Shown: positions 1 through 10,508, counted from the first letter of the stretch. The stretch: DNA of 10,508 bases from Candidatus Thorarchaeota archaeon (GCA_048882385.1 JBHLRQ010000110.1:1-10508); one strand, 5' to 3'. Notes: generated from the sequence alone by a model not told the origin. Numbers and translations: made by a program.

Positions 1-876
1 ATGTCAAAGAATGGTGAACCATCTGCTTACACATGTTGGACAGCCCTCACACTACTCCCAAATCTAGGCATTGGTACTGAGATTGATGTAACAGCTAATG
101 CTCAGTTTGTGGCGGGCTTACAGCAGATTAATGGAGGGTTCCTAGGCAAGCCATCGAACACTATTCCAACATTGGTTAGAACATACTACGCTCTCGACAT
201 GCTTAGAATAGCAGGCAGGTTGGAGCTCATTGATTTGGCTTCTGCTCAGAGCTTTGTACTGGGTTGCTATAATGACGATGGGGGCTTCGGCAATACTTTG
301 CACGGAGAGTCGGACTTCAACTACGCACCTGCAGGAATCCTTCTTTTGGATATTCTTGGTCTGCAGGACGAACTAAATATCAGCTGGACCACTGATTATC
401 TCTTGCAGTTTTGGGACAATGATTCAGGTTGTGATATACAAGCAGACCTTCTCTTCACTCAACGGATAGCCTGGTCATTGTGGCTCTTGGACAATGAGAA
501 CTCAATCGATGTAGCAAAGATGCTCCAGTGGGTTTTCAATCTTCAGAGACACGAGCATGGAGAGTTTGTTGGCTATCCTGGAGCGGACATCGAAAATGAA
601 CGTCTAGTCTTTGCAAATTATGCAACTCACATTCTTGCTATGTATAACGGTAGTAGTTTCTTGGACTATGATTTCTTGGTGGAGGACCCTCCAGTATGGA
701 CCATCCCACAATGGTGGATTGACTATATCAATTCAGAATGGGGTACAATCTCAAATCATGATGATGATTTCCATTCCTTGTATGCTGCTACCCTGTTTGT
801 TGCAGCAGTACTCATCCCACTATGCATCGTCACATCTGTAATGTGCTTTATTCAGAGATATAGAGAAAAAGGATAG
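1..876 (+). CDS. Prenyltransferase/squalene oxidase (PFTB) repeat protein with C-terminal membrane anchor; probably 5'-truncated by the window edge
   Basis: Repeated motifs QQINGGF, YNDDGGFG, QRHEHGEF followed by helices such as TYYALDML and ANYATHIL, typical of the geranylgeranyltransferase-beta alpha/alpha toroid repeat. Hydrophobic C-terminal helix followed by QRYREKG. Confidence 0.75.
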   Translation: MSKNGEPSAYTCWTALTLLPNLGIGTEIDVTANAQFVAGLQQINGGFLGKPSNTIPTLVRTYYALDMLRIAGRLELIDLASAQSFVLGCYNDDGGFGNTLHGESDFNYAPAGILLLDILGLQDELNISWTTDYLLQFWDNDSGCDIQADLLFTQRIAWSLWLLDNENSIDVAKMLQWVFNLQRHEHGEFVGYPGADIENERLVFANYATHILAMYNGSSFLDYDFLVEDPPVWTIPQWWIDYINSEWGTISNHDDDFHSLYAATLFVAAVLIPLCIVTSVMCFIQRYREKG

Positions 877-920
877 GAGAACCTTTGCACGAATTGAAGC
901 TTAGAAGCCAGTCCACAATT

Positions 921-929
921 CTTTTAACC
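921..929 (+). promoter_or_regulatory. Putative archaeal TATA box (TTTTAA, 922-927) of the tRNA-Ala 5' fragment
   Basis: About 32-37 nt upstream of the tRNA G1 equivalent (959), inside an 18-nt block identical to the upstream region of the intact tRNA. Confidence 0.6.
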
Positions 930-958
930 GTTCCAGCAAAGACAGCGAACCAGCACAT

Positions 959-979
959 GGGCCGGTAGATCAGCCCGGT
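959..979 (+). pseudogene. tRNA-Ala 5' fragment (exon 1 only)
   Basis: GGGCCGGTAGATCAGCCCGGT is identical to exon 1 of the intact gene. Similarity stops where intron 1 begins. A T5 run follows at 999-1003. Confidence 0.85.
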
Positions 980-991
980 AGTGCAATAATT

Positions 992-1510
992 TCAAATCTT
1001 TTTCCGAAGAATTCTTTTTGTTTCAGGTGCTGCTTTTCTCTTCTTCGCTCTATGTTTACTCTTAGTTTTCGGACCACCTTTCACCTTGCCAACAGTTCCA
1101 ACCTTGATAACTTCTGCAGTTGGTATTGTTTTCTCTGGAATCTGTGCTGGCCGTTTCTTAGTTATTGAAGCTTTTTTCATTTGACGCTTGGTTTCTGATT
1201 CAAATGATGGATATTTTGATTGTTTGTCTTTTGTGTCGATGCGTAACTGTTTTTCGCACCAAAATCGTAGATTAACTAATGTTCCAAGGTATAGAGATCG
1301 TGTGCTTTTGACAGCTTCACAAATCAGTCCTCTGTCATCATAGTATACGGGATCATTGCCCCCAATTTCATTTCTCGAAACATTGCACAACAATATCATT
1401 ACTTTTGCTAATTCTTTGCAAATGTTTTCGCATTCTTTTTGTGTTTTCGATTCAAAAAAGTCAACAGTAACTAATCGTGGGTTCATTGACCTACTAACCT
1501 CCTGAACCAA
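992..1510 (-). CDS. Hypothetical protein with Lys/Arg-rich low-complexity C-terminal half
   Basis: 172-aa ORF overlapping the end of the upstream 187-aa ORF, suggesting coupling. No family recognised. Confidence 0.6.
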   Translation of the reverse strand: MVQEVSRSMNPRLVTVDFFESKTQKECENICKELAKVMILLCNVSRNEIGGNDPVYYDDRGLICEAVKSTRSLYLGTLVNLRFWCEKQLRIDTKDKQSKYPSFESETKRQMKKASITKKRPAQIPEKTIPTAEVIKVGTVGKVKGGPKTKSKHRAKKRKAAPETKRILRKKI

Positions 1511-2057
1511 TCCAACCTATCAATACACCAACAGCAACAAACATCGAGAGAACTACTGCAAAAACGCCTATCAGTGCGAAGACCTGCGCTAATGTCAATG
1601 CTCGTGCTTTCTTTGAATTTACATCTCCCAATGAAAAGAGTGTTTCAACAAGTTTCTCAATCATTGCTGTTTCAATATCGGATACATTTGAGTCAAGGTA
1701 CATCAGAACAGCACTCTGCTCGTGAGGAAGATATGAGGGTATATACGCAGTTACACTTTGAGTACAAAGTGAAAATGTTGCAGAAAGAGCGAACAATACA
1801 ATTCCTCCAGCATAAAACCAAAGAAACGGAATCAGGCTTACAAGAGGCATACTCTCTCTTGCCATTGTTTCACCCAATGCGTATAAACCAACAAGAATTG
1901 CAGTTATTGAACTTGTAAAAGAAAATACTCTATTTGCTTTCTCCTCAATCTTATTCCATCTATCATGCTCAGCTGAAAGCTCTCGTTGATATTCCTGAAG
2001 CAGAAATTTTCTCAGCTTGGCCTTAGGGTCAGTCTGACTTCCCAATAGTGTCCCCAC
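1494..2057 (-). CDS. Three-helix membrane protein, possibly Pycsar effector (PycTM/DUF5706)-like
   Basis: N-terminal helix ending IEEKA, two hydrophobic helices, a soluble loop, then NSKKARAL and a third hydrophobic helix. This layout resembles PycTM-type effectors. The family call is by eye only. Confidence 0.5.
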   Translation of the reverse strand: MGTLLGSQTDPKAKLRKFLLQEYQRELSAEHDRWNKIEEKANRVFSFTSSITAILVGLYALGETMARESMPLVSLIPFLWFYAGGIVLFALSATFSLCTQSVTAYIPSYLPHEQSAVLMYLDSNVSDIETAMIEKLVETLFSLGDVNSKKARALTLAQVFALIGVFAVVLSMFVAVGVLIGWIGSGG

Positions 2058-2080
2058 GCAAGAAAGATTTAGAGTTCACT

Positions 2081-2097
2081 TGTATAAACGTATTTCG
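2081..2097 (-). promoter_or_regulatory. Putative BRE/TATA promoter for the 187-aa ORF (likely leaderless)
   Basis: Minus strand reads CGAAATACG-TTTATACA, with TTTATA about 26-31 nt upstream of the GTG at 2057. Confidence 0.45.
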
Positions 2098-2127
2098 AAA
2101 GAAACCTATTAATTTTCAAGAGACTTT

Positions 2128-2138
2128 AAAGAAAATAG
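2128..2138 (-). terminator. T-rich terminator of tRNA-Ala
   Basis: Minus strand CTATTTTCTTT directly after the encoded CCA. Confidence 0.55.
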
Positions 2139-2306
2139 TGGTGGACCGGGCGAGATTCGAATTCGCGCTCCGCGTGGTAATCACAGCAGAGTCTCGCGAC
2201 CTCCTCCATATTGATTTTCACGCGAAATGCGAGAAAAGTGCCAAGGAGGCGATCTAATTCCCAATGCCTTCGAAGTGAAGACAAAACCGGGCTGATCTAC
2301 CGGCCC
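2139..2306 (-). tRNA. tRNA-Ala(GGC) with three introns (D-loop ~2285-2256, canonical 37/38 at 2238-2209, T-arm 53/54 at 2192-2162)
   Basis: Removing three inserts gives GGGCCGG TA GATC AGCCCGGTA GATC G CCTCC TTGGCAT GGAGG AGGTC GCGAG TTCGAAT CTCGC CCGGTCC A CCA, a complete cloverleaf with G3:U70 (Ala identity), A73, encoded CCA and anticodon GGC at 2242-2240. Intron 2 forms a strict BHB. The intron 1 3' boundary is uncertain by about 2 nt. Confidence 0.95.
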
Positions 2307-2353
2307 ACGTGCTGGTTCGGAGTTCCTGATAGAATGGTTAAAAGAATTGTGGA
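2286..2353 (-). repeat. Inverted repeat arm B: promoter (TTTTAA at 2343-2338), leader and exon 1 of the intact tRNA-Ala
   Basis: 59/68 gapless identity to 912-979 in the opposite orientation. Confidence 0.95.
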
Positions 2354-2380
2354 GTGTTATCTAATAGTTGGGTTAAAAGA

Positions 2381-3178
2381 TTACTTTTTGAAAATAGGTT
2401 CACTATCTCGTTTGTACTTCATTTTACCTGAAGACCCGTAGTGGTATAATAACCAATCAAGTTGGGGGAGTTGAAAACGCGTTACAAAAGTAATAACATT
2501 GGAAAGAAAGTGTGATAGTCCGAGTCCTTCGGATTTAAACGAATCATCAGGCTCAATCTCAGTTAGATGGAGTTCGGTTTCCCAATGGTCACAAAGGCGA
2601 ACAAGGAATTGACTGCCGCCTTCGAAACCATAAACCCAACCAAGTGTTACTTCTTCATCATGAACATAAAGGAGATCAAATAATGTCTTTTGAGGATACT
2701 TTTCCTGCCGTATTTTGCTTTTTATGGCGGACTTAAGTGAGCCAGGACTTTGCCATCCCCCTTTGAAAGCAAAGATAATGGCAGTAGGTTGTCCAAGATA
2801 GTAATGTTCTCCCCAAGATGCTGGTATTACTAACGGTCGTATTAATTCCAGATTTGTGCGAGTATTATAGATATTCTTGAACGCTTCTCCAATCTTACCC
2901 TGCAAAGTTGTTTTGACCTCTATCGTAGCAACTGTTGAGTCAATAGGAATTAGACGGTCAGTAACTTCATCTTCAACTAGATTCTCAAAAACCACACTTG
3001 GTTGAGTAAGTTGATCATAGATTATCACATCAGTCTGGTTTGATTGAATACCTCTTCTATCAACTAGAAATCCTTCTACTACCCCATATCTCGACGGTAG
3101 GTACTTGAGTAGTAGTTTCCTCACTATTTTCTCGTTTGTTTCTCCTAATGCTTGATTCTGTTGGAATTCCTTATTCAT
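2381..3178 (-). CDS. DUF6602 / NucC-like PD-(D/E)XK endonuclease-fold protein
   Basis: GETNEKIVRKLLLKYLPSRYGV..GFLVD..G.QSNQTDVIIYD ... IPIDSTVATIEVK matches the G..E...L..YLP.RY / S.Q.D.IIYD / E.K pattern of NucC and DUF6602 proteins. Confidence 0.8.
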   Translation of the reverse strand: MNKEFQQNQALGETNEKIVRKLLLKYLPSRYGVVEGFLVDRRGIQSNQTDVIIYDQLTQPSVVFENLVEDEVTDRLIPIDSTVATIEVKTTLQGKIGEAFKNIYNTRTNLELIRPLVIPASWGEHYYLGQPTAIIFAFKGGWQSPGSLKSAIKSKIRQEKYPQKTLFDLLYVHDEEVTLGWVYGFEGGSQFLVRLCDHWETELHLTEIEPDDSFKSEGLGLSHFLSNVITFVTRFQLPQLDWLLYHYGSSGKMKYKRDSEPIFKK

Positions 3179-3339
3179 CTCTCTTAGGTTTTGTAACTAT
3201 TTTTCTCGTAGTATTCTGTTCTTTTCCAATGCAAATTCGCCTTGCCTATATTGAGTTCAATCAAGATGCAGAGAAAGTCCCCATTTCACGCATGTTTGAG
3301 TTGGCCAGTTGAATAGAAGCATATGTCTTTTGCTAATCC

Positions 3340-3361
3340 TCGAATCTCGCCCAGCCCACTA
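3340..3361 (+). repeat. tRNA-Ala 3'-end copy 1 (degenerate)
   Basis: TCGAATCTCGCCCAGCCCACTA, 19/22 to exon 4. Confidence 0.85.
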
Positions 3362-3466
3362 TCTTAACTTCTGCTGTTATATCCGTGTGTTTGTAGTACA
3401 GTTCTTTTCATATATTGAAAGATATATTCTAGGTCAGAGGAAATTGTAGTGAGAGGGAGTGCCCTA

Positions 3467-3934
3467 ATGAGCGATGAGCCTAAAAAGAGTAGTAATGTGA
3501 AAGGAAGATTCAAGAAGAGATCCATTGCCCTTGTGATTTTAATTTCGGCTGTGCTATTGATGTCACCGGTTGTATATTTTTGGTCGCTATCAGAATCAGG
3601 TACAGCGCAGACTTTTGGAATTCATTTCACAGGTCCCAATCAAACTTGGTTTGATGGGCAGATACGCATCGGATTTGAAGACGGACAGCATGAGGATCTT
3701 ACGCCTTGGCCAGTATTTCCACTTACCGAAGAAGGTTCACAAGTTGGTTGGGAATCATGGGTGATTGTAAATCGAACATTTGATAGTCCTGAAACGTGTT
3801 CTTTTGAGTACGATTGTTCAGAATTGGATATAACGGTTGGACCATTGACATTCAGGTCGAATCAACCTCAGATTCTATATCAAGATGAGTCTAGCCGAGT
3901 TATCGAAACATGGATAGTCATTCTACAAACATAA
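3467..3934 (+). CDS. Hypothetical membrane-anchored/exported protein
   Basis: Basic N-terminus, one hydrophobic helix (SIALVILISAVLLMSPVVYFW), then a beta-rich domain. ATG 3467 preferred over GTG 3449 because GAGGGAGTG precedes it. Confidence 0.7.
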   Translation: MSDEPKKSSNVKGRFKKRSIALVILISAVLLMSPVVYFWSLSESGTAQTFGIHFTGPNQTWFDGQIRIGFEDGQHEDLTPWPVFPLTEEGSQVGWESWVIVNRTFDSPETCSFEYDCSELDITVGPLTFRSNQPQILYQDESSRVIETWIVILQT

Positions 3935-3940
3935 CGATTC

Positions 3941-3963
3941 TTCGAATCTCGCCCGGTCCACCA
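3941..3963 (+). repeat. tRNA-Ala 3'-end copy 2 (exact exon 4)
   Basis: TTCGAATCTCGCCCGGTCCACCA, 23/23, followed by CTCCTTTTCT. Confidence 0.97.
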
Positions 3964-4204
3964 CTCCTTTTCTAATTCTTGATGCTAACCAATCATGTGC
4001 AATCGCCTCCTTTCTGACATCATCATTCGTTCGGCTTCTCGAGTCTATTAGCGATAAGTAGAAACTCCGAAGACCTTATGTCGAAGCTCCGCCCACAGTC
4101 TGGTTGACAGTGTTGTCATATCTGTGAAACTGAGGGCCAAGTAAGCCTACGCTAAACAGCTCGAAAGAGATATTTCGACAGATCAAGGAATTTGATGGGG
4201 TTAG

Positions 4205-4951
4205 TTGAACATGGATTCATGGAGAGATATCGGAAAAGCCTTGGAGGAAATTCTTCGACCCTCTACATATCCATTAGCTGTCAAGCTAGTTAAGGATGAA
4301 TCAGAATTTCCCGAGAAAACTCGAAGACCCGAAAGCAAAATCGCAATATGTCAAGCTCTAAGTCTATCTCGACGATTTGGCTGGACAATGGGTATCACAG
4401 AGGAAGATAGTGGTTGTCCTGGTGCTAGTTTCGCTTATGGCTGGAAAGAGCTTTTTGATAAATCCACACTTGCACTTTTCTTCCTTGAAGCAGGTTATGC
4501 TGCAGATGATGAAGGAGCAAACACCATCCTTGAGAATGTGGACCATCTAGAAAAGGGAAGATACTGTGCTCTAGTAATATCACCATTGACAAGAACAAAG
4601 ATTGTACCGGACGTAATTCTTGTGTATGGGAATCCTGCTCAGATAATGCGTCTCCTGCAAGGGGCTATGAACAAAGATGGAAAGAGATTGAAAGCTGAAT
4701 TAGCAGGAATCATGGCCTCTTGTACTAGTGGAGTTCTTCGCACTTTTAATACTCAAGACTATCAAATAGTAATACCAGGAAATGGAGACCGAGTATTTGC
4801 AGGTGCAAATGATGATGAAATGCTCTTTGCAATACCAGCCGCAAAAGCTGAGGAGATAGTAAATGGGATGAAACAACAGCGTTTCGCAAAATACCCAATT
4901 CCAATCTCGATGAAAATGCCGCCTCCTTTTCCAGGACTTGAAGAGACTTGA
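4205..4951 (+). CDS. DUF169 family protein
   Basis: Motifs YPLAVKL, CQALSLSRRFG, CPGA, PDVILVYGNPAQIMRL, ASC, PGNGDR..A...DDEMLFAIP. Start may be ATG 4211. Confidence 0.85.
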   Translation: MNMDSWRDIGKALEEILRPSTYPLAVKLVKDESEFPEKTRRPESKIAICQALSLSRRFGWTMGITEEDSGCPGASFAYGWKELFDKSTLALFFLEAGYAADDEGANTILENVDHLEKGRYCALVISPLTRTKIVPDVILVYGNPAQIMRLLQGAMNKDGKRLKAELAGIMASCTSGVLRTFNTQDYQIVIPGNGDRVFAGANDDEMLFAIPAAKAEEIVNGMKQQRFAKYPIPISMKMPPPFPGLEET

Positions 4952-4967
4952 CTCGCCCGGTCCACCA
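4952..4967 (+). repeat. tRNA-Ala 3'-end copy 3 (short)
   Basis: CTCGCCCGGTCCACCA, 16/16, directly abutting the TGA stop at 4949-4951 and followed by CTCCTTCT. Confidence 0.93.
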
Positions 4968-5017
4968 CTCCTTCTATATTCTAGGAAAACTTAACTCAAG
5001 AGTCATTTCTAGATTCG

Positions 5018-5827
5018 ATGTGGTTGGATTTGTCAAAGATCGAAGGTATCAATCCAGATGAAAGAGTAGTCTACGCATTGAGGTGTCGATTGCAGAAATT
5101 CGCGGGAGACCTTGTAGTAACTGACAAGGGCATCGTTTTCATCAAATATGAGGGGACCTTCATAACTCGTGGAAAAAGACTGCATGATTTCCCCTTCGAA
5201 ACACTGGGCGGAATTCGAATTGAGAAACAGGGATTGTTTGGGACAAACATTGCCATTGATACTAGGGACTTAGCCTGGGGAAATCGCACACATCGTTTTT
5301 CATGTTCGGATTCTGACGCCAAGAGATTCATAGCTGTTGTTGAAAATCAGAAACAGCTTCTAAAAACTCCTGAAGAAGTCGAAACCATAATTCTGAGTCT
5401 TGTTAAACCTAAAGGTGAAGCAGATTTGATGGAGGTTTCAAGAAATCTACAGATTCGGGATCTTATCGCTAGATTACAAGGATTGACCCATGACAGGCTT
5501 CCTGACATTTGGGCATTCAATGCAGTCAGGGATATTGTTGTGAAGTTAATTGCAAAAGGCTCACTAGACGGAATTATCACAGATGACAACAAGTTTGTTT
5601 CCAACGCTCTGCTGGCCAGAAAATCTGTACAATATCAAGTTGTTCTAGATTTCGCTTCAATCTATTCCCAGCTTGAAAACAAGGGAATAGTACTACAGAC
5701 TTTAGAATGTCCATCATGTAATGGAAAGCTAGAGTATCCGAAGGATGGTGACACAACTACATGTCAATTCTGTGGTGCAACTGTACACGCAGTGGATGTA
5801 TTCAAGAAATTCAAAGAGTTGCTGTAA
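5018..5827 (+). CDS. Hypothetical protein: PH-like N-terminal domain, helical/winged-helix-like middle, C-terminal zinc ribbon
   Basis: GDLVVTDKGIVF is typical of prokaryotic PH-like domains. LIAKGSLDGII resembles a winged-helix/PCI-like end. CPSC...CQFC forms a Zn ribbon. Confidence 0.7.
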   Translation: MWLDLSKIEGINPDERVVYALRCRLQKFAGDLVVTDKGIVFIKYEGTFITRGKRLHDFPFETLGGIRIEKQGLFGTNIAIDTRDLAWGNRTHRFSCSDSDAKRFIAVVENQKQLLKTPEEVETIILSLVKPKGEADLMEVSRNLQIRDLIARLQGLTHDRLPDIWAFNAVRDIVVKLIAKGSLDGIITDDNKFVSNALLARKSVQYQVVLDFASIYSQLENKGIVLQTLECPSCNGKLEYPKDGDTTTCQFCGATVHAVDVFKKFKELL

Positions 5828-5834
5828 TAGATTA

Positions 5835-5903
5835 GGAGGAGATCGCGAAACTCTGCTTGCATTTCGCGACAGAGCGCGAATTCGAATCTCGCCCGGTCCA
5901 CCA
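5835..5903 (+). pseudogene. tRNA-Ala 3'-half fragment (copy 4): exon 3, a variant 53/54 intron and exon 4
   Basis: GGAGGAGATCGCGAA (13/15 to exon 3), a 31-nt intron at 5850-5880, and exact exon 4 at 5881-5903, followed by TCTTCTTCTTTCTTT. Confidence 0.93.
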
Positions 5904-6006
5904 TCTTCTTCTTTCTTTGGCATTCCTTCATTCTTCAATCGATGATCGACTGTCTATTGAGCGGTCTAGTCCACGACTTCGTCTGACACCAGAATTGAAG
6001 ATCGGT

Positions 6007-6567
6007 CTAGGTCCTTGCGGCATCAAGGAAGTATATGGTTACGACTATGCCATTCACTGCGGCGAGCAAGCTATTCCAGATGTTCCAGCCACCACCAATC
6101 AAAGCCACCGACCAGTTCGCAACGCCAAAAGCTAAGAACACCAAGGCAGCAACAATGGAAAACGGACTGAATTCCTCGCGAAGCAACCATGCAGAAATCC
6201 CTGCAGCGATCCAGCCCACGCTATAGAATATCCAGCCAACCAAAATAGAGGTTTGCAACCAATCAGGTATAATAGCAGGCAGGCCAATCAAGTAATACGG
6301 TAGGGGAGTTGTGATATCCCGCACGATGATGCATATAGCACTGACTAGCGGAATGACGTTCCCGCTCTTTCGCCATAGTCCAAAGAACCCTATACTGATT
6401 AGGATCATAGCCAGGATAAGTATCTGATAGTGTTGTACTGGACCCCAGGGGAAGAATTCCTCGTGGGTTTCAAAGGTCCAGCCAAGAAAACTTGGGCTGT
6501 ATATCAGTGCGATGAGGAAACCGCCAATAGCACCGAGTACGAACGAAGCTTTTATTCCATTATTCAA
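6007..6567 (-). CDS. Hypothetical multi-pass membrane protein (about 6 helices)
   Basis: 186 aa, mostly hydrophobic segments. TTG start preceded by AGGAGTGGAG. Confidence 0.75.
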   Translation of the reverse strand: MNNGIKASFVLGAIGGFLIALIYSPSFLGWTFETHEEFFPWGPVQHYQILILAMILISIGFFGLWRKSGNVIPLVSAICIIVRDITTPLPYYLIGLPAIIPDWLQTSILVGWIFYSVGWIAAGISAWLLREEFSPFSIVAALVFLAFGVANWSVALIGGGWNIWNSLLAAVNGIVVTIYFLDAART

Positions 6568-6600
6568 CGATTCTCTCCACTCCTACTAGTGTTGAGAGGC

Positions 6601-6787
6601 GCATCAGTCTTTTTTTCACATTCTAATCCTCCCATCCTTTGTCCACACAACAAAGAACTGAACAGATTGTATATTCAGTGTTCATTATCTCTGTTTCTTT
6701 AGCTGGCATATACAAAGAAACCTACGGAGTTGTATTCTATAAGAAAGAACTTCACTACACAATGATAGAATCTCGCCCATTCCACAA
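6601..6787 (+). repeat. Long direct repeat copy A (partner 7563-7757), ending in tRNA 3'-end copy 5
   Basis: First 120 nt are 108/120 identical to 7563-7682. The remainder aligns with an 8-nt net indel. Confidence 0.95.
6768..6787 (+). repeat. tRNA-Ala 3'-end copy 5 (degenerate)
   Basis: GAATCTCGCCCATTCCACAA, 17/20. Confidence 0.85.
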
Positions 6788-6825
6788 CGTTTTCACTACT
6801 CTCAATCGAGTCCTTTTTGTTCTGT

Positions 6826-7581
6826 TCATCTTCGCCTGAGGAAAACGATTGTTAACGCAATGACAACTACAGTAACGACACTCCCAATGATGATCAGTTC
6901 CCAAGACAGGGGTGTTGAGGGCATTTTCACAGTGTCATCAACAACTAGGTTGTCTATCGCAGCACCAGTAGCTCTGTAGCAGTAGAACTCGAGATAGGTA
7001 GAACTTGTAACAGCATTACTGGTGAAGTTTGCTTCGAAAGTTCCATTGACGAAGACATAGAAGTTGCCATCACTTGTCCTGCTCACATCAATGTGGTGCC
7101 ATCCTTGTATAGGATCTATATTGATGGTTGATTCAACATTCGAAATTAGTCCGTTCATTGTCCAGACAATGAAAGACGGAGCGGGATGTGCCCAAACTCC
7201 AACACCTACAAAGTAATTGGCGAACGTTGGGATTTGTCTGGAGCCGTTAGACATGAAATAGACATACATAGCATACCCAGAAAGTTCATTGTCTGGTACA
7301 AACATATCGAAACTCCAAGTCCCGACATTCACAGTACTGCTGTGCCTTGCAAAGTTCATATCATCATCAAGTACCTTCAGCGTACCTTCTGCATCCGTGA
7401 AGTTGCCTTCTATCGTAACGAGTGAATATTCATCTTCGTATGCGAATATTGTCCAATCACCTAGTCCACCTTCGAAGTCGTCACTCCAAATCACAGCTGC
7501 ATTTGTAGTTGTTGTGCATACTGAGAGCAAGAGAACAAACATCGTAACTCCAGCAATTAGGTGCATCAGTCTTTTTTTCAC
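6826..7581 (-). CDS. Exported concanavalin A-like/LamG-like beta-sandwich protein with C-terminal membrane anchor
   Basis: Signal peptide MKKRLMHLIAGVTMFVLLLSVC from GTG 7581, which has GGGAGG upstream (preferred over 7608). WSDDFE, GTWSFD, GWHHIDVSR..DGNFYVFVNG and IDNLVV motifs. Terminal hydrophobic helix followed by RRR. Confidence 0.75.
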   Translation of the reverse strand: MKKRLMHLIAGVTMFVLLLSVCTTTTNAAVIWSDDFEGGLGDWTIFAYEDEYSLVTIEGNFTDAEGTLKVLDDDMNFARHSSTVNVGTWSFDMFVPDNELSGYAMYVYFMSNGSRQIPTFANYFVGVGVWAHPAPSFIVWTMNGLISNVESTINIDPIQGWHHIDVSRTSDGNFYVFVNGTFEANFTSNAVTSSTYLEFYCYRATGAAIDNLVVDDTVKMPSTPLSWELIIIGSVVTVVVIALTIVFLRRR

Positions 7582-7757
7582 ATATGTGGCCTCCCATCCT
7601 TTGTCCACACAACAAAGAATTGAACAGACTATATATTAGGCGTTCATTATCTCTGTTTCTTTAGCTGGCATATACAAAGAAACTCATGGGAACATATTCC
7701 ATAAGAGAGAAAGACCTGAGGGCACTACACAACGATAGAATCACGCCCGGTCCACCA
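7563..7757 (+). repeat. Long direct repeat copy B, ending in tRNA 3'-end copy 6
   Basis: Aligns to 6601-6787. Covers the first codons, RBS and upstream region of the 6826-7581 gene. Confidence 0.95.
7738..7757 (+). repeat. tRNA-Ala 3'-end copy 6
   Basis: GAATCACGCCCGGTCCACCA, 19/20, followed by TTTCTCCTT. Confidence 0.93.
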
Positions 7758-7857
7758 TTTCTCCTTGTGTCAGCACATCAAGCCTTTATATTAGAATGAA
7801 ATAAAGCTGGAAGACCTAAGTTTCAAATTTGAAAATCGAGAGTTGCGAGTGAGTTCA

Positions 7858-8982
7858 ATGGTAGAGAAAGAAACATGGGAGAACACGGTGTTCAAAAAAT
7901 TAGAATTACCAAATGGAGTGATTGTTTCCAACCGAATCATGCGAGCCGCCACTTGGATGGGACAAGCAGAAAAAGAGGGAAGATGTGGGGATACGATTAT
8001 AGAAACATATGGCAAAATCAGAGCTGGTGTCGTGGTGACCGGCTTTCAATATGTGATGCATGAGGGGCAGTCAATTAAACGAATGATTTCAAATTCAAAG
8101 CCTGCAGATGTTGAAAGTCTAAAAAGACTTGCAGGAATAATTCATTCATCAGGTGGTTTAGCCGCAGCTCAATTGGTCCATTGTGGGTGTAAGAGTTTGC
8201 CAAAATATTCTGGCAATGATATATTCGGACCTAGTGATATGGAAGTCCCTGGCCCTAAAGGAGAGGTTGTTCAGGTGAAAGCCATGACGGTGGACCATGT
8301 TGAAGAGGTCACTCAGGCTTATGCTAATGCAGCGAAACGTGCGGAAAAGGCAGGGTTTGATTTGATTGAGCTTCACGGAGCGCACCATTATGGTCTTTGG
8401 CAATTCTTTGATCCATCATATAATCATCGCCCAGAGAATGATCCTTATACAGGAAAATCAATCGAAGGTCGTAGCAAAGCGATGGTGGACTCTGTACGAG
8501 CTATCAAGGACACAGTTGATATTCCAGTCCAAGTAAAGGTGGATTCAAGCTCAGATACCGTCAGAACCGAAGAAGTAGGCGAGCTAGTGAAGAAACTTGC
8601 TGAGGCAGGCGCATATTGTGTGATATTCAGTGGCCCAAACCCAAGTCGGAAACCAAGAGATATGCAAGATGCATATTTTCTGGATGACGCATTGGTTATC
8701 CGTTCCATTGCACACGATAGTCGTCTCTTGTTCGGGTTGGTGGGCGGTATCCGGTCTCCAGAAACTGCCATCAAGTTACTGACTGGAGATGGAAATCCGG
8801 CTGCTGCGTTCGATGTCATTCAACTTAGCCGTCCATTAATCAGTGAACCAGCACTCTTTCATCGTTGGACTGAAGAAGCAAAAACAGGGACCCAAGAACC
8901 TGCTCGATGTATATCCTGTAATCGTTGTTTAGCAGCTGGACTTAAGGGAGGAGTAAGATGCGTTCAGTTTGAAAGTGATTAG
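7858..8982 (+). CDS. NADH:flavin oxidoreductase, Old Yellow Enzyme family
   Basis: SNRIMRAAT, AQLVHCG, AGFDLIELHGAHHY, GGIRS, SRPLISEP and a C-terminal CISCNRC...C cysteine motif. Start is ATG 7858 or TTG 7843. Confidence 0.92.
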   Translation: MVEKETWENTVFKKLELPNGVIVSNRIMRAATWMGQAEKEGRCGDTIIETYGKIRAGVVVTGFQYVMHEGQSIKRMISNSKPADVESLKRLAGIIHSSGGLAAAQLVHCGCKSLPKYSGNDIFGPSDMEVPGPKGEVVQVKAMTVDHVEEVTQAYANAAKRAEKAGFDLIELHGAHHYGLWQFFDPSYNHRPENDPYTGKSIEGRSKAMVDSVRAIKDTVDIPVQVKVDSSSDTVRTEEVGELVKKLAEAGAYCVIFSGPNPSRKPRDMQDAYFLDDALVIRSIAHDSRLLFGLVGGIRSPETAIKLLTGDGNPAAAFDVIQLSRPLISEPALFHRWTEEAKTGTQEPARCISCNRCLAAGLKGGVRCVQFESD

Positions 8983-10430
8983 GAATAACTCCAAAAGAGG
9001 GTAATCGAATCACACCCAGTCAACCACTCTTCTTTTTGATTCTGAGTAGTCATTATCTCCATTTTGATTGATTGATTAGAATTTTCTATTATTTGACTAC
9101 TGGCTCCCAAGCACCTTGCCGATAGAGCCTGATGTCCAAGAGCAGTGTATTCCACAACCCCACCTACCATTGTCATTAGCACTTCTATGTCAGCAAGAGT
9201 GTTTTCTGGAACTGTCAGCGGGTTGTCTGAGAGCATCACAAGGTCTGCAAATTTGCCCACCTTGACGCTCCCCTTTACATCCTCTTGAAACGTCCCATAG
9301 GCCGCATCGATAGTCAGTAGTCGAAGAGCTTGTTCCACGCTGATAGTCTGATTCAACATCCAATCTGTAGGCGTTAGTCCAAGCCTACCGACTCTGGTGA
9401 CAGCACTAGAGATAACATACATTGCTGACCTATCAGTTCCTATAAGCCAAGGATAGTCGGTACTTCCCATTGTTGGGATTCCTGCTTCAAGAATATCTCT
9501 CCATCTACCTACGAGGTGTGAGTAATTCTGTAGATATGGCCATGATTCCGCTTCCTTCCAATCTGAGTTGAACCATGTGAGCTGGATTGAGGCGGTAATT
9601 TCTAGATCGGCCAGTTTCTGTATCCGGTCATCATTGAGTAGAACGAGATGCTCGATTCGGTGTCTATGCTGTTGGTTCGATTCCCCGTCCAAGGCCGACT
9701 CCAGAGCGTTTAGAACAATGTCTGTGGCATTGTCAACTACACTGTGAATAGATATCTGAAATCCGTCATCATGGGCCTGTTGTACCAGTGCGTCTAGTTC
9801 AAGCTGGTCGAAGTAGTGAAGCCAATCGGTGTACCAGCTGTCCATGAAAATCTTAACCCCACCTATCCTCAACTTCGAACTATATTCCTGCCCGGGTTGA
9901 TAGGCCTGGTACCAATCGCCGAACCTCTCGAACTGCCAACTCAAGGGGAGATAGGCATTGACACGAATGCGAAGGTTGTCCTGTTGATTCAAAGTAATGA
10001 GACCATCCAGGCGTTCTTGATTCACAAAGAGTTCAGAAATACTGGTCCATCCAGCACTAAGTACTGAATCAATCACTTCATCTGATGTTGATTGGTTCAC
10101 GTAGCTCCGATCACCAATATGATGTGAATGAGCATCATTGAAACCGGGTAGAAGTGTCCTTCCTCCAAGGTCTATGAGTTGAGTATTTGGTCCTGCCAAC
10201 GCAAGAACATCATTTTCATCGCCCACAGCGACGAAATACTCACCTTGGATGGCTACTGCTTCGACTTGTGAAGGGGACTCTTCCATGGTAAGAATTATAC
10301 CATTGTGGAAAATAATGTCGGGGGCAGTTTCGGATGTTTTCCAGAATCCTTGAAAACCTAGATACAAGAGAGAAGCTAGTAATATCGTGAGTACGAGAGA
10401 TGTAGCTAGAAACAGTCCACGTCGTGTCAT
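8979..10430 (-). CDS. Metal-dependent amidohydrolase (Amidohydro_3/YtcJ-like) with N-terminal signal/anchor
   Basis: IDLGGRTLLPGFNDAHSH, GGVKIFMD, QISIH, RHRIEH, GSTD, GSVKVGKFADLVML motifs. Confidence 0.92.
   Translation of the reverse strand: MTRRGLFLATSLVLTILLASLLYLGFQGFWKTSETAPDIIFHNGIILTMEESPSQVEAVAIQGEYFVAVGDENDVLALAGPNTQLIDLGGRTLLPGFNDAHSHHIGDRSYVNQSTSDEVIDSVLSAGWTSISELFVNQERLDGLITLNQQDNLRIRVNAYLPLSWQFERFGDWYQAYQPGQEYSSKLRIGGVKIFMDSWYTDWLHYFDQLELDALVQQAHDDGFQISIHSVVDNATDIVLNALESALDGESNQQHRHRIEHLVLLNDDRIQKLADLEITASIQLTWFNSDWKEAESWPYLQNYSHLVGRWRDILEAGIPTMGSTDYPWLIGTDRSAMYVISSAVTRVGRLGLTPTDWMLNQTISVEQALRLLTIDAAYGTFQEDVKGSVKVGKFADLVMLSDNPLTVPENTLADIEVLMTMVGGVVEYTALGHQALSARCLGASSQIIENSNQSIKMEIMTTQNQKEEWLTGCDSITLFWSYS
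9005..9026 (+). repeat. tRNA-Ala 3'-end copy 7 (degenerate, inside the amidohydrolase tail)
   Basis: TCGAATCACACCCAGTCAACCA, 18/22, followed by CTCTTCTTTTT. It begins 22 nt after the OYE stop, the position expected from the array pattern. Confidence 0.75.
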
Positions 10431-10494
10431 TAGATTAACTCCTTTCCCTAACCAAGCAGAATTCTAATGTTTGAAGTTAGATAATAATCATCCG

Positions 10495-10508
10495 TTCGAA
10501 TCTCGCCC
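10495..10508 (+). repeat. tRNA-Ala 3'-end copy 8 (cut by window end)
   Basis: TTCGAATCTCGCCC, 14/14. The preceding bases (ATCCG) cannot form the T-stem, so it is not part of a whole tRNA. Confidence 0.85.

Follow-up and report, generated by a model that had tools for sequence, protein, structure and literature searches.

The window analyzed in this study is a 10,508-nt stretch of DNA from a Candidatus Thorarchaeota archaeon (GCA_048882385.1, JBHLRQ010000110.1:1-10508), which represents one entire contig (C110) of a metagenome-assembled genome of 3.70 Mb (256 contigs, 95% complete). It carries an array of single-gene cassettes delimited by co-oriented copies of the 3′ end of a tRNA-Ala gene. 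Arrays of this anatomy are spread through a Thorarchaeota family, their contents change between genomes at breakpoints that fall at the tRNA-derived cores, and their cassettes are exchanged horizontally. We cautiously lean toward a mechanism in which conservative site-specific recombination within the core adds, removes, and moves cassettes by means of an enzyme encoded elsewhere. In function, the system is an analogue of integrons rather than a member of that family. What appears to be new is integration at a tRNA site with the granularity of an integron; the first-pass annotation, which had proposed an integron-like gene-capture platform, is right in outline, with its mechanism unproven.

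Eight copies of the tRNA-Ala 3′ end lie in one orientation on the plus strand, starting at positions 3339, 3941, 4952, 5881, 6765, 7735, 9004, and 10495, and the repeat unit is 23 nt long, from T54 to the CCA end of tRNA-Ala. Searching with a 20-mer at up to three mismatches on both strands gave six matches in the window (one being the tRNA gene itself) versus 0.00 in 200 shuffles. This count leaves out the 16-nt copy at 4952, the degenerate one at 9004, and the one at 10495 that the contig end truncates. Repeat 2 (3941-3963) is an exact 23-mer, Repeat 6 (7735-7757) has one mismatch, Repeat 5 (6765-6787) has three, and Repeat 1 (3339-3361) is a decayed copy of the tRNA 3′ exon with three mismatches in the 20-mer. 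Repeat 3 (4952-4967) comprises the last 16 nt only, which are exact and directly preceded by the stop codon of a DUF169 gene; Repeat 7 (9004-9026), degenerate with three mismatches in its last 14 nt, lies within the 3′ end of a minus-strand amidohydrolase open reading frame (ORF); and Repeat 8 (10495-10508) consists of the first 14 nt, after which the contig ends inside the repeat. Repeat 4 (5835-5903) is a long copy of the tRNA gene (69 nt), which starts close to where the anticodon arm ends and takes in exon 3, the T-arm intron, and exon 4, with an exact core at 5881-5903; it was identified from an 89-nt inverted repeat at 79%, and 5835-5914 matches 2128-2207 at 81%. Successive repeats are spaced by 602, 1004, 936, 884, 970, and 1269 nt. 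Each of the seven intervals carries one ORF (four on the plus strand and three on the minus strand), and the seven cassette genes belong to unrelated families. The eight co-oriented tRNA ends, their spacings, and the one-gene intervals of both orientations had all been described in the first-pass annotation and were all recovered here; its copy at 5835 does contain a repeat, but that position is the start of the longer copy, whose core begins at 5881.

The source of the repeat unit is a tRNA-Ala(GGC) gene with three introns of ~30 nt on the minus strand (2139-2306). Its exons occupy 2306-2286, 2255-2239, 2208-2193, and 2161-2139, and its introns lie in the D-loop (2285-2256), at position 37/38 (2238-2209), and in the T-arm at 53/54 (2192-2162); exon 4 is exactly the 23-nt unit. 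ARAGORN and Rfam (E up to 1) called no tRNA in the window, and the gene was recognized by eye and by comparison with relatives; the first-pass annotation mentions neither this gene nor that the window is a whole contig broken inside a repeat. With the three insertions removed, a 77-nt tRNA-Ala(ggc) with G3:U70 is obtained that is accepted by ARAGORN, and each insertion folds as its own internal hairpin in the minimum-energy fold. Removal of the insertions restores a canonical cloverleaf with identity elements, and the region reads, from its sequence, as an archaeal intron-containing tRNA gene. Elsewhere in this genome, ARAGORN finds only Ala(TGC) and Ala(CGC) as Ala tRNAs. The orthologues in congeners contain no intron (G005), one (G014), two (G001, G012, G008, and G009), or all three (G013), which indicates fast gain or loss of introns at this gene. 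The T-arm intron (2162-2192) abuts the 5′ edge of the 23-nt unit exactly, and its 3′ end resembles the preceding exon sequence; this position looks like a recombination scar at the edge of the core.

Genome-wide, the 20-mer has 15 matches, compared with 0 for a reversed-pattern control, and these are distributed over the window contig (six), contig C98 (three), C20 (two), and C2, C9, C60, and C109 (one each). The 11 clustered matches include the tRNA gene of the window and the Ala(CGC) gene, and ARAGORN tRNA genes lie at three of the four single matches. The motif is thus clustered rather than the generic, scattered repeat against which the first-pass annotation had cautioned. C98 carries four co-oriented copies, followed by the genes that flank the array in relatives, and therefore probably continues the array of the window. 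One contig from a different study matches 619-4404 without a difference, including the inverted tRNA and the first two repeats, and contigs from other public runs bridge 7654-8441 and 8386-10265. On a closed Thorarchaeota chromosome, five copies (up to three mismatches) lie within 4 kb; a profile search recovers six or seven co-oriented copies there. Every interval contains a single ORF of 90 aa or more, and the head lacks a tRNA body.

The motif is present in each of the 28 genus genomes (257 matches versus 2 for the control). Across a sample of 251 genomes of the phylum, at least six matches were found in 35 of 60 genomes inside the family and in 0 of 191 outside it (outside maximum, five), in a test that detects this tRNA-Ala sequence only. 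Using a repeat profile built from 66 copies, we obtained 79 repeats in 27 loci, which define 54 intervals between same-strand neighbors. The intervals have a median length of 1319 nt (range, 0.3-3.6 kb) and a median coding fraction of 0.87; a single ORF of at least 80 aa is found in 36 of the 54, two in 11, and more than two in 7, with decayed repeats inside some of the larger ones. At least seven units are present in the window, and nine repeats occur in one relative. Seventy cassette proteins matched 53 families, and the 25 families listed are flavin reductases, oxidoreductases, monooxygenases, hydrolases, methyltransferases, and regulators.

The first-pass annotation had placed the cassettes at one tRNA, and this view has to be widened. 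In the same genome, the Tyr, Leu, Arg(CCG), Phe, and Ala(CGC) tRNA genes are each accompanied by one to four additional copies of the gene's own 3′ end, spaced by 0.4-3 kb, and the genes between these repeats, among those scanned, encode ordinary enzymes and a transporter. Short arrays of this kind follow tRNA-Tyr (L079, contig C1), tRNA-Phe (L082, contig C125), and tRNA-Ala(CGC) (L083, contig C20), and the ORFs scanned in these three loci encode a NosD-like beta-helix protein, an octopine-type dehydrogenase, a B12-binding protein, a major facilitator superfamily (MFS) transporter, and a C25 peptidase. No cassette family was common to arrays of different tRNAs, a distant beta-helix similarity aside.

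Comparison across genomes reveals exchange of whole cassettes. Nucleotide matches of the window to 40 relatives begin and end at repeats (for example, 7738-8972 and 9005-10497) and lie in differing neighborhoods. The cassette encoding an old-yellow-enzyme (OYE)-type flavin oxidoreductase (cassette 6; gene at 7843-8982, plus strand; family F1 of our clustering) occupies the position beside the tRNA in G014 (and, it appears, in G016), the second position in G001 and G012, and roughly the eighth in G010, while the amidohydrolase cassette (cassette 7; gene at 8979-10430, minus strand; family F5) adjoins the tRNA in G009 and G013. Both flavin mononucleotide (FMN)-reductase subfamilies precede the OYE cassette in some arrays and follow it in others, so that order is variable. 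Between two loci that are about 92% identical (L053 and L054), all three differences in content are bounded by repeats, one of them by a decayed copy; between L028 and L029, the first cassette is replaced and the next one is 94% identical from repeat to repeat.

The DUF169 cassette (cassette 2, 3941-4970; gene at 4205-4951, plus strand, by family match) is 97.0% identical over 1030 nt to a metagenome contig, exactly from repeat to repeat, and its 3′ part is 98.4% identical to G008. Its three copies have three different neighbors on either side, with homology stopping at the repeats, and more distant DUF169 genes (70% at the protein level) are located in loci without repeats. Compared with G008, G010, and G014, the conserved flanking genes of this genome show only 69-74% identity, whereas shared cassettes show 81-98%, which indicates that cassettes move between species. 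Orientation relative to the repeat is constant in each family (F1, 16/16; F2, 13/13; F3, 11/11; F4, 8/8; F5, 7/7). Gain, loss, replacement, and re-ordering at the repeats are seen in L053/L054, L028/L029, the DUF169 cassette, and the FMN-reductase and OYE cassettes. The first-pass annotation had proposed gain, loss, and re-ordering at the repeats as a check, and its description of discrete, integrase-less cassettes with tRNA-derived boundaries agrees with cross-genome breakpoints at the repeats.

Of the tRNA T-arm and acceptor stem, the repeat contains the 3′ strand only. Conservation begins at T54 in the T-loop and runs up to CCA, behind which lies a pyrimidine-rich tail, and many non-tRNA copies retain the perfect 23-mer. 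We compared repeats that adjoin the same cassette family but differ in the neighbor across the core. Sequence in the 14 nt left of the core goes with the left cassette (identity of 0.65 versus 0.51 in the background; 76 pairs), sequence in the tail behind CCA goes with the right cassette (0.58 versus 0.42; 105 pairs), and the core itself is at background. The breakpoints therefore lie within the core, and the crossover is resolved no finer than that. Immediately behind CCA, the OYE cassette opens with a stretch conserved in most copies; the TATA-like element in it may serve as a promoter. Of the cassette ORFs, 49 have the same orientation as the repeat and 35 the opposite. When seven junctions were folded as DNA, six gave z = +0.64 to +1.36 and the seventh gave -1.80. 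The first-pass annotation had given the tRNA end the part that attC plays in integrons, but the repeats are not folded sites of the attC type. Terminal inverted repeats were not found either, the ends of a cassette scoring 5.35 with each other versus 5.48 for mismatched ends. Some joints in Logan contigs were considered as alternative junctions and rejected: other tRNA-Ala genes match both ends of 981>5875 and 2161>2287, and 3971>5885 (side 21) and 5904>4056 (depth 2.3) are too weak to count. The stretches 2458-3861 and 4915-5616, which are uncovered in X4 and X6, were unusable for this junction search. Neither an excised cassette circle, which the first-pass annotation had suggested looking for, nor an empty-site junction was seen in these assembled contigs, a kind of material that is unable to reveal them.

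In the reading that we favor, a cassette is one accessory gene delimited by a core of ~23 bp, identical to the last exon of tRNA-Ala(GGC), with a pyrimidine-rich tail behind it. Recombination with breakpoints inside the core adds, removes, replaces, and re-orders cassettes, which also pass between species. The reaction may be a conservative site-specific one between cores, of the kind performed by tRNA-targeting integrases with a repeat from the T-loop to the 3′ end, and a single core would leave with a cassette on excision. The gene for the enzyme would lie elsewhere than in the array: it would either sit on mobile DNA that escaped binning or belong to a family invisible to present profiles. 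A site-specific route is favored because a defined 23-bp site remains intact in many non-tRNA copies, because the T-loop-to-3′-end layout is typical of tRNA-targeting integrases (in 2002, Williams reportedly described it as the repeat left by integrases that target the T-loop), and because the arrays are restricted to a lineage and new genes need to acquire a core.

Several results weigh against this mechanism. Six-frame searches of the genome with PF00589, PF16795, PF00239, PF01548, PF00078, PF01867, and PF01797 gave no match, with controls responding: no tyrosine, serine, DEDD, Cas1, HUH, or reverse transcriptase (RT) enzyme was matched in the genome, and no recombinase family was found among the ORFs of the window or among the 25 listed cassette families. 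The nearby or trans-acting tyrosine recombinase that the first-pass annotation suggested looking for was consequently not detected in this genome (PF00589, six frames, window included), nor was a recognizable XerA, of which most archaeal genomes have one (PMC8371274, in part). Because a metagenome-assembled genome can miss mobile DNA, absence from the assembly is not absence from the cell. PF00589 is absent from 19 of the 28 genus genomes, and its matches in the other nine are mostly on short contigs; 10 integrase loci fetched from congeners contained no tRNA and no convincing core (a single 14-mer match with three mismatches was dismissed as being at chance level). The closed relative has one PF00589 match, 650 kb from its array and without a homologue in this genome. 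Viral contigs gave three chance matches to an exact 18-mer, all inside ORFs, and no vehicle, and the F4 and OYE cassette proteins had no relatives in viral contigs. The core lacks obvious dyad symmetry (by eye) and folded structure. That a single genome has arrays at six tRNA genes, representing five amino-acid types, would call for several specificities or a generic mechanism. The tRNA gene is inverted relative to the array in the window and in several relatives, a layout that simple integration does not predict. Finally, cassette order is largely colinear between genomes, so that part of the pattern could be vertical descent with loss; descent alone would also give fixed orientation and colinearity, but neither the re-ordering nor the excess of identity.

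A broader form of site-specific capture is less probable. Thorarchaeota may have a gene-capture system of their own in which the last exons of tRNAs are a universal cassette site and the recombinase is beyond the reach of current profiles; the same system would also generate non-canonical introns, scattered tRNA fragments, and flipped tRNA genes.

The main rival to an enzyme-driven reaction has no dedicated recombinase. The cores would be short homologies used by the homologous or microhomology recombination of the cell with related Thorarchaeota DNA, and the first cores would be old integration scars. We consider this rather unlikely, while noting how much it accommodates: the seven recombinase and transposase families unmatched in the genome, the arrays at six tRNA genes (five amino-acid types), which a generic mechanism explains easily, the internal replacements, which resemble double crossovers in flanking cores, the fixed orientation of cassettes, which homologous exchange preserves, and the persistence of arrays away from any tRNA body. 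However, the identity held in common is only about 16-23 nt, the first acquisition of a core by a new gene is left unexplained, and copy number is raised in one family only (35/60 genomes inside versus 0/191 outside). Perfect 23-mers in many non-tRNA copies also suggest a selected site, although gene conversion could have the same effect.

It is improbable that the arrays are what is left of ordinary integrative elements (integrase-encoding proviruses or plasmids) that entered the tRNA in succession and then shrank to about one gene each. Such integrations classically leave direct repeats of the 3′ part of a tRNA as their scar, decay is seen in some repeats (3339, 6765, and 9004), and tyrosine recombinases are present on short contigs in 9 of 28 congeners. 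Against this reading, 36 of 54 intervals contain exactly one ORF, the median coding fraction is 0.87, and the same cassette is found with identical boundaries in different arrays at 97-98% identity. No integrase fragment was detected (PF00589 and PF16795 in six frames, and the 25 listed of 53 cassette families), and the cargo consists of metabolic enzymes rather than genes of viruses or plasmids.

Very little probability attaches to capture of the CRISPR-adaptation or casposon type, by which an integrase would insert arbitrary DNA at the tRNA 3′ end and the repeats would be target-site duplications. Casposons use a Cas1 casposase and have terminal inverted repeats and a target duplication of 14-15 bp; here, PF01867 was not matched, terminal inverted repeats are lacking, and the repeat is 23 nt. 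The fairly fixed length of the unit (T54 to CCA), the presence of ORFs in both orientations (49 same and 35 opposite), the lack of terminal inverted repeats, and the colinearity of much of the order are compatible with target duplication. Against it, the genome has no Cas1, the repeat beside the recently replaced cassette of L029 differs from the tRNA's own end at several positions, one cassette occurs in three arrays with different neighbors, re-ordering is seen, and one copy of 69 nt includes an intron. An assembly artefact joining contigs of different genomes through a common repeat is already largely refuted: the source is metagenome-assembled, the contig ends inside a repeat, and repeats often break assemblies, but the contig from another study (619-4404, without differences), the bridges over 7654-8441 and 8386-10265, the similar array on a closed chromosome, and the motif in 28/28 congeners do not bear out the misassembly that the first-pass annotation had listed as a concern.

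Returning to site-specific recombination as the preferred reading, the array is integron-like in outline and is not an integron. Integrons and clusters of attC sites lacking an integron integrase (CALINs) resemble it in their mostly single-gene, diverse accessory cassettes, recurring site, shuffling between genomes, and frequent lack of a nearby integrase (PMC9668308, in part). Archaeal integrons and CALINs are reported to be enriched in Asgard and are defined by attC and IntI, and tRNA is not mentioned in the part of that source available here (PMC9668308). Three of four integron features tested fail in the arrays; the feature found is a single-gene cassette array that varies between relatives (36/54 one-ORF intervals, with changes at the repeats). 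Integrons recombine at an attC hairpin, whereas the site here is a tRNA 3′ exon with junctions that do not fold. IntI is encoded beside the array in integrons, whereas PF00589 had no match in six frames of this genome. Integron cassettes are mostly promoterless and co-oriented under one Pc promoter, whereas both orientations occur here and the OYE cassette has a TATA-like start. Finally, an attI site heads the integron, in contrast to the tRNA gene that heads the present array.

Cis-mobilizable elements (CIMEs) and related bacterial islands are stacked, integrase-less elements between repeats of an attachment site, with the integrase supplied in trans. They are similar to the present arrays in that direct attachment-site repeats separate stacked elements without recombination genes of their own, but CIMEs are typically several kilobases long, few per site, and derived from recognizable integrative and conjugative or integrative mobilizable elements (ICEs/IMEs), whereas the units here have a median of 1.3 kb, number at least seven, and have no known parent element or integrase. 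As for tRNA islands in general, a direct repeat of the 3′ part of the tRNA is present at the far end of the insert, and an element-encoded integrase was not found (PF00589 and PF16795 in six frames, and the 25 listed of 53 cassette families). The dif modules of Acinetobacter plasmids are likewise small modules of one or a few genes with short sites, a recombinase not encoded by the module, and shuffling between replicons (PMC13141974, PMC6449649, PMC7399989, each in part). According to the same partial sources, their sites are XerC/XerD sites on plasmids, whereas we find co-oriented, tRNA-derived chromosomal repeats and no detectable Xer-type protein in the genome. The two inverted arms and the host Xer of such modules are not found here, with no dyad by eye and no PF00589 match.

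In 2001, She and colleagues reportedly described gene capture in archaea by integrases of the Sulfolobus spindle-shaped virus (SSV) type. Capture by archaeal tRNA integrases is comparable in that foreign genes are taken up at tRNA genes, partial tRNA repeats result, and trapping is possible (PMC8371274, PMC7253208, both in part). The halves of a split integrase flank SSV-type captured elements, and the inserts are much larger, whereas no such fragments occur here (PF16795 and PF00589, six frames). The model of tRNA disruption by a mobile element in Caldiarchaeum also shows some likeness, with a 5′ tRNA fragment a kilobase or two from an intron-bearing gene and intron content that varies among relatives, but it involves one 1.9-kb insertion with a putative recombination protein rather than an array of 3′-end repeats with cargo genes (PMC3293823, in part). 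No description of tRNA-end cassette arrays was found in a full-text literature search, the coverage of which did not extend to most subscription journals and supplements.

The arrays provide a concrete and repeatable route of gene entry, in which redox enzymes, hydrolases, methyltransferases, and regulators pass between species as single-gene cassettes and are stacked at tRNA genes. If a recombinase is responsible, site-specific recombination gains a new system whose 23-bp site is short and defined; if no such enzyme takes part, cores of 20 nt suffice to build an integron-like gene pool. Cassette traffic is also linked to two puzzles of archaeal tRNAs, namely, non-canonical intron positions and scattered gene fragments.

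Inverted pieces of tRNA genes are associated with several arrays. In the window, an orphan copy of the upstream region and exon 1 (959-979) of tRNA-Ala(GGC) lies on the plus strand at 901-996 as an inverted repeat of 2269-2364 (96 nt, 78% complementary), and it stops exactly where the D-loop intron of the full gene starts. The 1.27-kb segment (997-2268) between the inverted copies of promoter and exon 1 contains two ORFs of no family (992-1510 and 1494-2057) and the remainder of the tRNA gene; inversion of this segment would leave the tRNA intact in either state. Orphan 5′ tRNA fragments are also present in G005 and G008. The divergent layout of tRNA and array recurs at the Arg and Leu genes of the same genome and is conserved in G007, G024, and G015, whereas G001, G012, G005, G013, G014, and G004 have a direct layout with the tRNA and array co-oriented. 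A complete tRNA heads the co-oriented array in G001, G012, G005, G013, and G014. At divergent loci, such as 906-3889 of L080 (contig C94) and 559-2054 of L081 (contig C187), a pair of inverted cores encloses the tRNA body with its promoter, and the array points away from the gene; the layout is common to relatives L073, L074, and L075 (three congeners), with differing cassettes.

The remaining cassette genes of the window encode a protein of 161 aa without a family (cassette 1; 3449-3934, plus strand), a 269-aa protein with a bPH_3 domain (cassette 3; 5018-5827, plus strand), a 186-aa protein that matched no family and reads as a membrane protein (cassette 4; 6007-6567, minus strand), and a 260-aa member of a multi-copy family with a weak Laminin_G_3 match (cassette 5; 6826-7608, minus strand). 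Between the tRNA promoter and Repeat 1, the minus strand encodes a DUF6602 / PD-(D/E)xK NucC-like nuclease (2381-3178; PF20247, 4.8e-22; PADLOC PD_DExK, 2e-23), a PADLOC class that corresponds to a defence-type effector. At the nucleotide level, this gene was matched in none of 40 relatives. Neither it nor ORF172 or ORF187 has a paralogue in the genome or a copy in the fetched integrase loci.

Some genes are closely fitted to the cores. The stop codon of DUF169 abuts the core in both the window and G008. The amidohydrolase ORF crosses the core on the opposite strand and stops in the adjacent cassette, so that its last ~16 residues depend on the neighbor, and ORFs in L030, L031, and L035 likewise cross an adjacent core. 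For an element in the long leader of the DUF169 cassette (4010-4140), there was no Rfam match, and its folding is no better than that of shuffles (z = -0.04); a stretch of ~110 nt within it (4019-4130) also matches loose places in G004, G008, G011, G016, and contig C148 of this genome. Upstream of two adjacent, unrelated minus-strand cassette genes, a 153-nt direct repeat with 85% identity is present (6597-6749 and 7559-7711), so that different genes carry one leader-like module plus core. Ahead of the head repeat of the closed relative lies a similar motif, CACTACA.AA.G (L086, ~12220-12232).

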